A stretch of DNA of 64,000 nt from Escherichia coli. Lineage in GTDB: Bacteria; Pseudomonadota; Gammaproteobacteria; Enterobacterales; Enterobacteriaceae. A program made the position numbers and the translations under genes. A model generated the notes under the pieces. It did no database searches. It was not told the origin of the DNA and saw only the letters and a program-made list of their open reading frames with translations. The stretch lies in the NCBI RefSeq assembly GCF_002854065.1, contig NZ_CP024147.1; one strand, 5' to 3'. The stretch's first letter is position 1. Each line of letters opens with the position of its first letter. Below, in pieces: positions 10,056-10,449 of the stretch.

Positions 10056-10094
10056 TCTATCGCCATTGACTTCGCTGTTTTTTCGACCTATTGT

Positions 10095-10246
10095 AAAGGA
10101 ATGAGGGTAAGGGAGGATTGCTCCTCCCCCTGGTATCTTAGTAAGCCGGTAAGCTAATGACTAAGAGTATTACCAGTATGATGACTAGCCTCATCATAAC
10201 CCTTTCCTTATAAAAGGCCCCTTCGTCAGGAGGGGCTTTCCTGTTT
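10095..10246 (+). ncRNA. sib: Sib-type antisense sRNA (antitoxin of type I Ibs/Sib system); boundaries approximate
   Basis: Fully overlaps the ibs ORF on the opposite strand and ends in a rho-independent terminator (ggcccc...aggggc followed by a T-run) at about 10215..10246. Confidence 0.45.
10138..10197 (-). CDS. ibs: Ibs-family type I toxin (19-aa hydrophobic peptide)
   Basis: Minus-strand ORF ATGATGAGGCTAGTCATCATACTGGTAATACTCTTAGTCATTAGCTTACCGGCTTACTAA = MMRLVIILVILLVISLPAY, matching the Ibs toxin pattern; located between yegD and mdtA as ibsA/ibsB are in K-12. Confidence 0.6.
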   Translation of the reverse strand: MMRLVIILVILLVISLPAY

Positions 10247-10367
10247 TAGCGCCCTGCTAAACGCCGCTGACGGTAGCACACGCGGCGATTGCGCGGTTTT
10301 TCATCGCCGCGGATTGCGAGGAGCCTCGTAAAGCTGACGCGATTCAGACGATTCCTTCCGTGTTTCA

Positions 10368-10386
10368 TATTTCCTCCATTTTTCCC
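10368..10386 (+). promoter_or_regulatory. Putative BaeR-box-like motif upstream of mdtA
   Basis: Sequence atttcctccatttttccc resembles the reported BaeR binding consensus TTTTTCTCCATDATTGGC, about 65-80 bp upstream of the mdtA start. Confidence 0.3.
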
Positions 10387-10449
10387 GAGCGTTCCGTTAC
10401 TAAACTAGTATCATTTCGTGAAATGATTCAGGACGAGACACCTATAACG

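Follow-up and report, generated by a model that had tools for sequence, protein, structure and literature searches.

In the 64-kb stretch of Escherichia coli DNA analyzed here, hereafter the window, the gene for the HSP70-family protein YegD (8703–10055, + strand; NCBIfam equivalog NF008673, 783 bits) is followed by mdtA (10450–11703, + strand; NCBIfam equivalog NF008589, 701 bits). With yegD ending at 10055 and mdtA starting at 10450, the spacer between them (10056–10449) measures 394 bp, in agreement with the figure of ~400 bp given in the initial annotation, which had been made from the sequence alone. That annotation also stated that K-12 carries yegI-yegJ-yegK-yegL and two ibs/sib loci at this place. 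The K-12 record confirms this, with the order yegD-yegI-yegJ-pphC(yegK)-yegL-sibA/ibsA-sibB/ibsB-mdtA and a yegD–mdtA gap of 4,995 bp, so that K-12 does not share the compact junction. The proposal of a single Ibs/Sib type I toxin-antitoxin locus in the spacer proved right as well. The Rfam family SIB_RNA (RF00113) matches 10066–10212 on the + strand over model positions 1–147 of 147 (150.2 bits, gathering score 56; E = 2.3e-31), and this is the sole Sib match in the window. The 19-codon Ibs-type ORF at complement 10138–10197 translates exactly as had been written, and the full-length match, followed on the + strand by a hairpin and T run, is consistent with its lying antisense to a terminator-ended Sib transcript, as had been suggested.

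We delimited the Sib antitoxin RNA to about 10103–10247 (+ strand, ~140–145 nt) using RF00113 and an alignment to K-12 sibA–E and 29 other loci. Its 5′ end at ~10103 was set by homology to the annotated K-12 sibA start, and its 3′ end falls at 10242–10247, past the terminator. A promoter scan found a consensus-level site at 10066–10094 on the + strand (−35 TTGACT, 17-nt spacer, −10 TATTGT), which aligns with the first positions of the SIB_RNA model and is the single promoter-like site in 9900–10600 (one seen, 0.2 expected from shuffled sequence). Terminator-like sites were also more frequent than in shuffled sequence (6 seen, 0.7 expected); the one assigned to sib (10214–10247, + strand) consists of an 11-bp G+C-rich hairpin at 10214–10239 and the T run CCTGTTTT. 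The predicted minimum free energy of the Sib fold is −59.7 kcal/mol (z = −5.06 against shuffles), and its shape is that of the family, namely a closing helix GAGGGU/ACCCUU, three internal hairpins and the terminator last. Among 35 Sib sequences from at least 12 genera, 10 of the 32 pairs of the consensus fold showed compensatory changes, chiefly within the 5′ hairpin and the terminator, a covariation that does not discriminate strand since the strands are exact complements and the same helices are possible in the ibs mRNA. In the alignment, the variable segments of the window Sib, which are the counterparts of the SibC recognition domains, are unlike those of all five K-12 Sib RNAs. By the rules established for the E. 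coli RNAs (PMC2943612), the window Sib should for this reason act mainly on its own ibs.

On the opposite strand, the ibs toxin ORF (10138–10197, − strand) comprises 19 codons and a stop and encodes MMRLVIILVILLVISLPAY. Its Shine-Dalgarno sequence AAGGAAAGGG (10200–10209, − strand), read from the sequence, ends 2 nt before the ATG, and the ORF and the Shine-Dalgarno sequence lie entirely within the Sib-complementary region. The peptide fits the 18–19-aa hydrophobic family pattern MM[KR]x[VL]II..LLVIS..AY. In our survey, which includes the window, the ibs ORF was intact in 35 of 36 Sib-positive copies, with the consensus MM[KR]x[VL]II[LV]V[IL]LLVIS[FLYW]xAY, and the Shine-Dalgarno motif was kept in nearly all loci compared. 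Across 29 distinct 60-nt ibs ORFs, entropy was highest at the third codon position (0.69), followed by the first (0.34) and the second (0.21), and amino-acid changes gathered at residues 4, 16 and 17; the variability of ibs is thus of the coding type. On identical DNA, RefSeq carries the annotation type I toxin-antitoxin system Ibs family toxin (WP_112919032.1), and public gene calls for ibs on identical contigs carry PF13956 (Ibs_toxin). The locus belongs to the Ibs/Sib family, with the anatomy of that family, intact Sib expression signals and a conserved peptide. Because every testable family-defining feature was found and the RefSeq annotation is present, we count the locus as already known.

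The weakest part of the anatomy is the ibs promoter, for which we can offer a tentative call only: a weak extended −10 element, TGcTACCGT (10270–10278, − strand), with no convincing −35, proposed by inference and left uncalled by the consensus promoter scan. Transcription from this candidate is predicted to start at ~10263, a position that fits the 18-nt 5′ overhang of the ibsC mRNA beyond the SibC 3′ end (PMC2943612). A conserved ibs promoter was sought across genera, and the sequence upstream of the ibs start was not alignable between lineages, which keeps the call tentative. The same region is overlapped by a 40-aa ORF (10,246–10,368, − strand) that appears as a gene call in some public assemblies of the lineage; it has no Pfam match and is probably spurious.

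Compared with its K-12 relatives, sibB/ibsB and sibA/ibsA, the window locus is of the same family, on the same side of mdtA and in the same orientation. As in the K-12 sibA and sibB loci, the ORF and Shine-Dalgarno sequence are fully within the antisense RNA, and the closing helix, the ATGATGA/TCATCAT hairpin and the terminator are the same. The window Ibs has 19 aa, like IbsA, whereas IbsB of K-12 has 18. Unlike K-12, the window has one sib/ibs copy instead of two, and the gene upstream is yegD rather than yegL. IbsA/SibA of Salmonella Typhimurium, the homologue with a proposed target (bioRxiv 10.1101/2025.05.26.656083), likewise combines a 19-aa toxin, a basic residue at position 3 and Leu11 with a single copy in its own spacer; it differs in lying at a yqiK-rfaE locus and in having His at position 3, where the window peptide has Arg.

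We infer the regulation and toxicity of the window Ibs/Sib from its E. coli and Salmonella homologues. The + strand would yield a Sib RNA of ~143 nt, transcribed from the near-consensus sigma-70 promoter and ending at the intrinsic terminator, and the − strand an ibs mRNA with its ribosome-binding site and whole 19-codon ORF inside the Sib-complementary region. Complementarity between the two is complete, the genes being cis-antisense. By analogy with the E. coli homologues, Sib would pair with the ibs mRNA through its variable recognition regions, block translation and lay the duplex open to RNase III, so that the toxin would normally not be made. Specifically, E. coli Sib RNAs are constitutive and have two recognition domains, TRD1 and TRD2, one of which lies within the ibs ORF and the other at the translation initiation region; for these RNAs, cognate specificity, RNase III cleavage and repression of ibs have been shown (PMC2943612). 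If made, the hydrophobic peptide, a member of the Ibs family of membrane-inserted toxins (PMC2887945), would enter the inner membrane and lower membrane potential and ATP. Salmonella IbsA is reported to bind subunits a and b in the Fo part of ATP synthase, to inhibit Fo and to reduce ATP, and to need both a basic third residue and Leu at position 11 (bioRxiv 10.1101/2025.05.26.656083); the window Ibs has Arg3 and Leu11, which match these positions reported to be essential.

That the window Sib/Ibs is an inert relic, neither expressed nor toxic any more, would fit the weakness and poor sequence conservation of the ibs promoter and the viability of K-12 cells deficient in SibA (PMC2943612). We consider this improbable, because the ibs ORF, its Shine-Dalgarno sequence, the sib promoter and the terminator are all intact, sib/ibs is invariant in 10 contigs of the lineage described below, and the coding-type conservation across genera argues for selection.

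The DNA around the locus falls into two parts of different affinity. From position 1 to ~10,050, the window shares 66–78% identity with K-12 in BLAST comparisons, and from ~11,200 to 64,000 it shares 97–100%. We used YegD to scan one genome per species. Kluyvera georgiana ATCC 51603 was closest by a wide margin, at 98% aa identity, and the next best match reached 89%; identity to K-12 YegD is 85%. The window is collinear with K. georgiana at 85–100% identity per 200 bp (mean ~93%) up to ~11,200, after which identity drops to 70–86%. Positions that tell K-12 and K. georgiana apart are Kluyvera-type in the window up to 11,139 and E. coli-type from 11,145 on. We accordingly delimited a K. georgiana-like block at 1–11142, which continues past the left edge of the window and comprises yegH, asmA, dcd, udk, a split dgcE homologue, alkA, a Kluyvera-type allele of yegD, sib/ibs and the 5′ 55% of mdtA. 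Its GC content is 56.2%, against 51.9% for the remaining window. As the switch falls at codon ~231 of mdtA, the gene encodes a chimera in which residues 1 to ~230 are Kluyvera-type and the remainder E. coli-type. An abrupt change of nearest relative and E. coli-type DNA on both sides, the signs by which a recombinant segment is recognized, were both found. Given the ~7% nucleotide divergence, the donor was not K. georgiana ATCC 51603 itself but a relative of it. Within the block, the dgcE homologue (~5,490–7,760, + strand) is present as two ORFs, one for a MASE1/PAS protein of 547–570 aa and one for a GGDEF protein of 201 aa; DgcE of K-12 is one 1,105-aa protein, and the second ORF of the window overlaps the 3′ end of alkA.

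The junction of K. georgiana ATCC 51603 has the identical yegD-sib/ibs-mdtA layout, with a gap of 397 bp and one Sib, and between the terminator and mdtA the two spacers are 100% identical (10,201–10,470 of the window). In contrast, the sib/ibs core differs by ~13 substitutions, and the K. georgiana peptide is MMRSVIILVILLVISYPAY where that of the window is MMRLVIILVILLVISLPAY. All of these ~13 spacer differences fall within 10,118–10,188, with none in the next 270 bp. Since the core diverged while the adjoining 270 bp remained identical, allelic exchange within the module is possible. In addition, the C-terminal Ibs alleles SLPAY and SYPAY are each common to several genera. Together, the core differences and the shared C-terminal alleles hint at allele exchange or at diversifying selection at the recognition regions.

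Our main reading, to which we assign a probability of about 0.88, is that a single, complete type I toxin-antitoxin module of the Ibs/Sib family sits in the spacer and was imported within the K. georgiana-like block by homologous recombination. The block would have replaced the resident E. coli region, with one crossover inside mdtA. This replacement would have taken out yegI-yegJ-pphC-yegL and both resident sib/ibs loci and put in yegD, one sib/ibs locus and mdtA of the donor. On this evidence, the spacer is short because the E. coli neighborhood was replaced by Kluyvera-like DNA, not because of a local deletion.

Several observations were made in the E. coli-type part of the window. Within DNA that is 98–100% identical to K-12, a ~470-bp patch of baeS (19,430–19,900) shares 78–88% identity with it. 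This patch is not Kluyvera-like and was rejected as a second Kluyvera fragment, so its source would be a third one or an old allele. Between yegP and trhP, the window has a 780-bp insertion relative to K-12 (21,995–22,776), which encodes a ParD-family antitoxin (22,170–22,466; TIGR02606, 88 bits) and an adjoining 98-aa ParE-like ORF (22,468–22,764) with no NCBIfam match; the two look like a type II toxin-antitoxin pair. CyaR is present at 24,311–24,396 (RF00112, 100.7 bits), and the prophage remnant PR-X (ogrK, yegZ), which lies just downstream of CyaR in K-12, is absent from 24,382–26,739. The IS3E that interrupts gatR in K-12 is absent as well, so gatR is probably intact. A TPP riboswitch at 41,571–41,667 (− strand; RF00059, 71 bits, above the gathering score) is collinear with the thiM-thiD region of K-12, and a Peptidase-S11 RNA motif at 63,100–63,180 (− strand; RF03039, 73 bits, above the gathering score) is placed close to the pbpG end of the collinear stretch. 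Two IS1 copies (43,760–44,533 and 48,016–48,787), which are 99.5% identical to IS1B elsewhere in the same genome, occupy the places of yehA-yehD (5.4 kb) and yehF-yehQ (~14 kb) of K-12, which suggests IS1-associated deletions at both places.

The initial annotation had taken the compact junction to be either an ancestral state or a deletion of the yegI–yegL module, and had proposed a synteny comparison. We surveyed 80 loci, one genome per species and Salmonella not among them, by tblastn and nhmmer. Genes of the yegI/pphC/yegL set stood between yegD and mdtA in E. coli (K-12 and E69) and two other Escherichia species only. Escherichia albertii has a compact junction of 625 bp with one Sib. Gaps of ~440–450 bp with one Sib were found in Citrobacter (~15 species), Pseudocitrobacter (one or two Sib), Trabulsiella odontotermitis, Yokenella and Kluyvera, the gap of K. 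georgiana being 397 bp. Compact gaps without Sib were found in Leclercia, Lelliottia, Silvania, Kosakonia, Buttiauxella, Cedecea, Franconibacter and Atlantibacter, and in most Klebsiella and Raoultella mdtA does not adjoin yegD. The compact layout is thus the norm among the 80 loci, and the yegI–L module appears to have been inserted later, in E. coli and the two Escherichia relatives that have it; the GC content of the module in K-12 is 41–52%, against 56% for yegD. The ancestral half of the earlier proposal therefore holds in a general form: a compact junction, often with one Sib, is widespread and is probably the older layout of the Enterobacteriaceae. It does not hold for the window, whose own junction is Kluyvera-type and, lying inside the K. 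georgiana-like block, is neither a retained ancestral state of E. coli nor a local deletion.

Compact junctions are rare within E. coli. A yegD–mdtA gap below ~2 kb occurred in 7 of 5,426 E. coli genomes, namely five that carry the mosaic of the window, strain 19-5 and strain ET5. ET5 has a compact single-ibs junction, and its yegD and mdtA share ~80% identity with the window, the level of typical E. coli. Such a strain, like the frequency of the compact one-Sib junction outside E. coli, including in E. albertii, is what one would look for if the lineage of the window had never gained yegI–L or a second sib copy and simply retained the ancestral state. For the window itself we regard this as very unlikely. 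Its flanking genes share 66–78% identity with K-12 and ~93% with Kluyvera and are not E. coli alleles, and identity jumps to 99–100% K-12-like inside mdtA, whereas a vertically retained junction should have E. coli-level identity to its left as well as to its right.

Strain 19-5 bears on the deletion half of the proposal, in which yegI–yegL and one sib/ibs copy would have been lost locally from an E. coli chromosome. Its junction is a genuine internal deletion, so such events occur: yegI–L is lost, a partial ORF stands directly after yegD, at the place of the yegI 3′ end in K-12, and both ibs are kept. The yegD and mdtA of 19-5 are at the identity level of typical E. coli. The window differs from 19-5 in ibs copy number and in the type of its flanks. 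Moreover, the window spacer contains no remnant of yegI, yegL or a second sib, its 10,201–10,470 segment is 100% identical to K. georgiana and its flanks are Kluyvera-type, all of which makes a local deletion a highly improbable origin.

The mosaic, in contrast to a single aberrant sequence, recurs in independent genomes. We found it in 5 of 5,426 complete E. coli genomes, with at least 99.8% identity through the crossover and with Gambia, wastewater, soil, chicken meat and human given as their sources. An index of public assemblies lists the exact YegD protein in 1,083 blocks, and all 10 independent contigs examined had the same crossover, with 0–50 differences over 7.3 kb and an unchanged sib/ibs. 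The mosaic is genuine and is passed on as one piece. A chimeric assembly, or a Kluyvera-like species mislabelled as E. coli, would suit a segment seen in just 5 of the 5,426 genomes but is scarcely credible, because five complete genomes that differ in source and country share the junction and crossover with 10 of 10 contigs, and because the DNA beyond the far end of the block is 97–100% K-12-like. Misidentification of the matching genomes under the E. coli label was rejected on the further ground that 53 kb of the window is itself 97–100% K-12-like.

To follow the block beyond the left end of the window, we used the carrier contig NZ_CM128593.1, in which non-E. coli DNA of ~68 kb, at 67–86% identity to K-12, occupies ~1,825,940–1,893,530. 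Leftward, this DNA runs through wza-wzc, the colanic-acid genes, galF, the O-antigen cluster, gnd, ugd, the his operon, plaP and tsuAB to sbcB. The O-antigen cluster has wzm/wzt annotated as O52 family and genes for 6-deoxy-heptose. Past sbcB come an integrase fragment, IS1, an acyltransferase gene and then dacD, which is 98.8% identical to K-12. Our Kluyvera comparison covered the 11 kb inside the window, and the rest of the ~68-kb block is characterized as unlike E. coli. Exchange of surface-polysaccharide loci between genera is documented in Enterobacteriales, with 218 between-genus cases (PMC7305143), and the O8/O9 clusters are atypically placed between gnd and hisI, the usual position in Klebsiella (PMC7685785). 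The present block resembles these cases in being non-E. coli DNA at the colanic-acid, O-antigen and his region with crossovers in conserved flanks. It differs from them in the Kluyvera-like donor of the part within the window, in its extension to mdtA, in the exchange of toxin-antitoxin content and in the deletion of yegI–L. A literature search found no paper on a Kluyvera origin of the O52 region or on a Kluyvera-like block reaching mdtA.

A tentative reading, in which we place less than even confidence, is that the compact junction is one end of an apparently undescribed ~68-kb Kluyvera-to-E. coli replacement, which would reach from sbcB into mdtA and take in his, the O52 O-antigen and colanic-acid genes and yegD. 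One such event may have founded a widespread lineage. It would have given this lineage O52-type genes, deleted the YegI/PphC Ser/Thr kinase-phosphatase module, put one foreign Sib/Ibs locus, with new recognition sequences, in place of the two resident ones and made a chimeric MdtA behind a Kluyvera-type promoter under E. coli BaeR.

The sequence TTTTTCTCCCTTATTGGC, found upstream of mdtA in K-12, E. albertii and Citrobacter alike, resembles the BaeR box. At the corresponding place (10,379–10,396), the window and K. georgiana have TTTTTCCCGAGCGTTCCG, which agrees with it at 9 of 18 positions. No site in the window came within 3 mismatches of the E. coli BaeR-box consensus; the alignment explains this by divergence of the box in the Kluyvera-type promoter. 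Judging from this divergence, the imported mdtA promoter may respond differently to the resident E. coli BaeR.

The toxin-antitoxin locus of the window is an ordinary member of a well-studied family, annotated before, and its layout is the usual one outside E. coli. More notable is a by-product of the analysis, the intergeneric replacement, which is of modest interest and not a new kind of system. The value of the analysis lies in the corrected evolutionary reading of the junction, by which yegI–L looks like an insertion specific to E. coli and certain related Escherichia species that was lost in one E. coli lineage through a large import from another genus. Because yegI–L and sibA/sibB were lost by import, the carriers are natural knock-outs of yegI/pphC/yegL and of sibA/sibB. 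With their foreign Sib/Ibs and hybrid mdtA, they could be used to study cross-talk between Sib paralogues and the compatibility of BaeR with an imported promoter.
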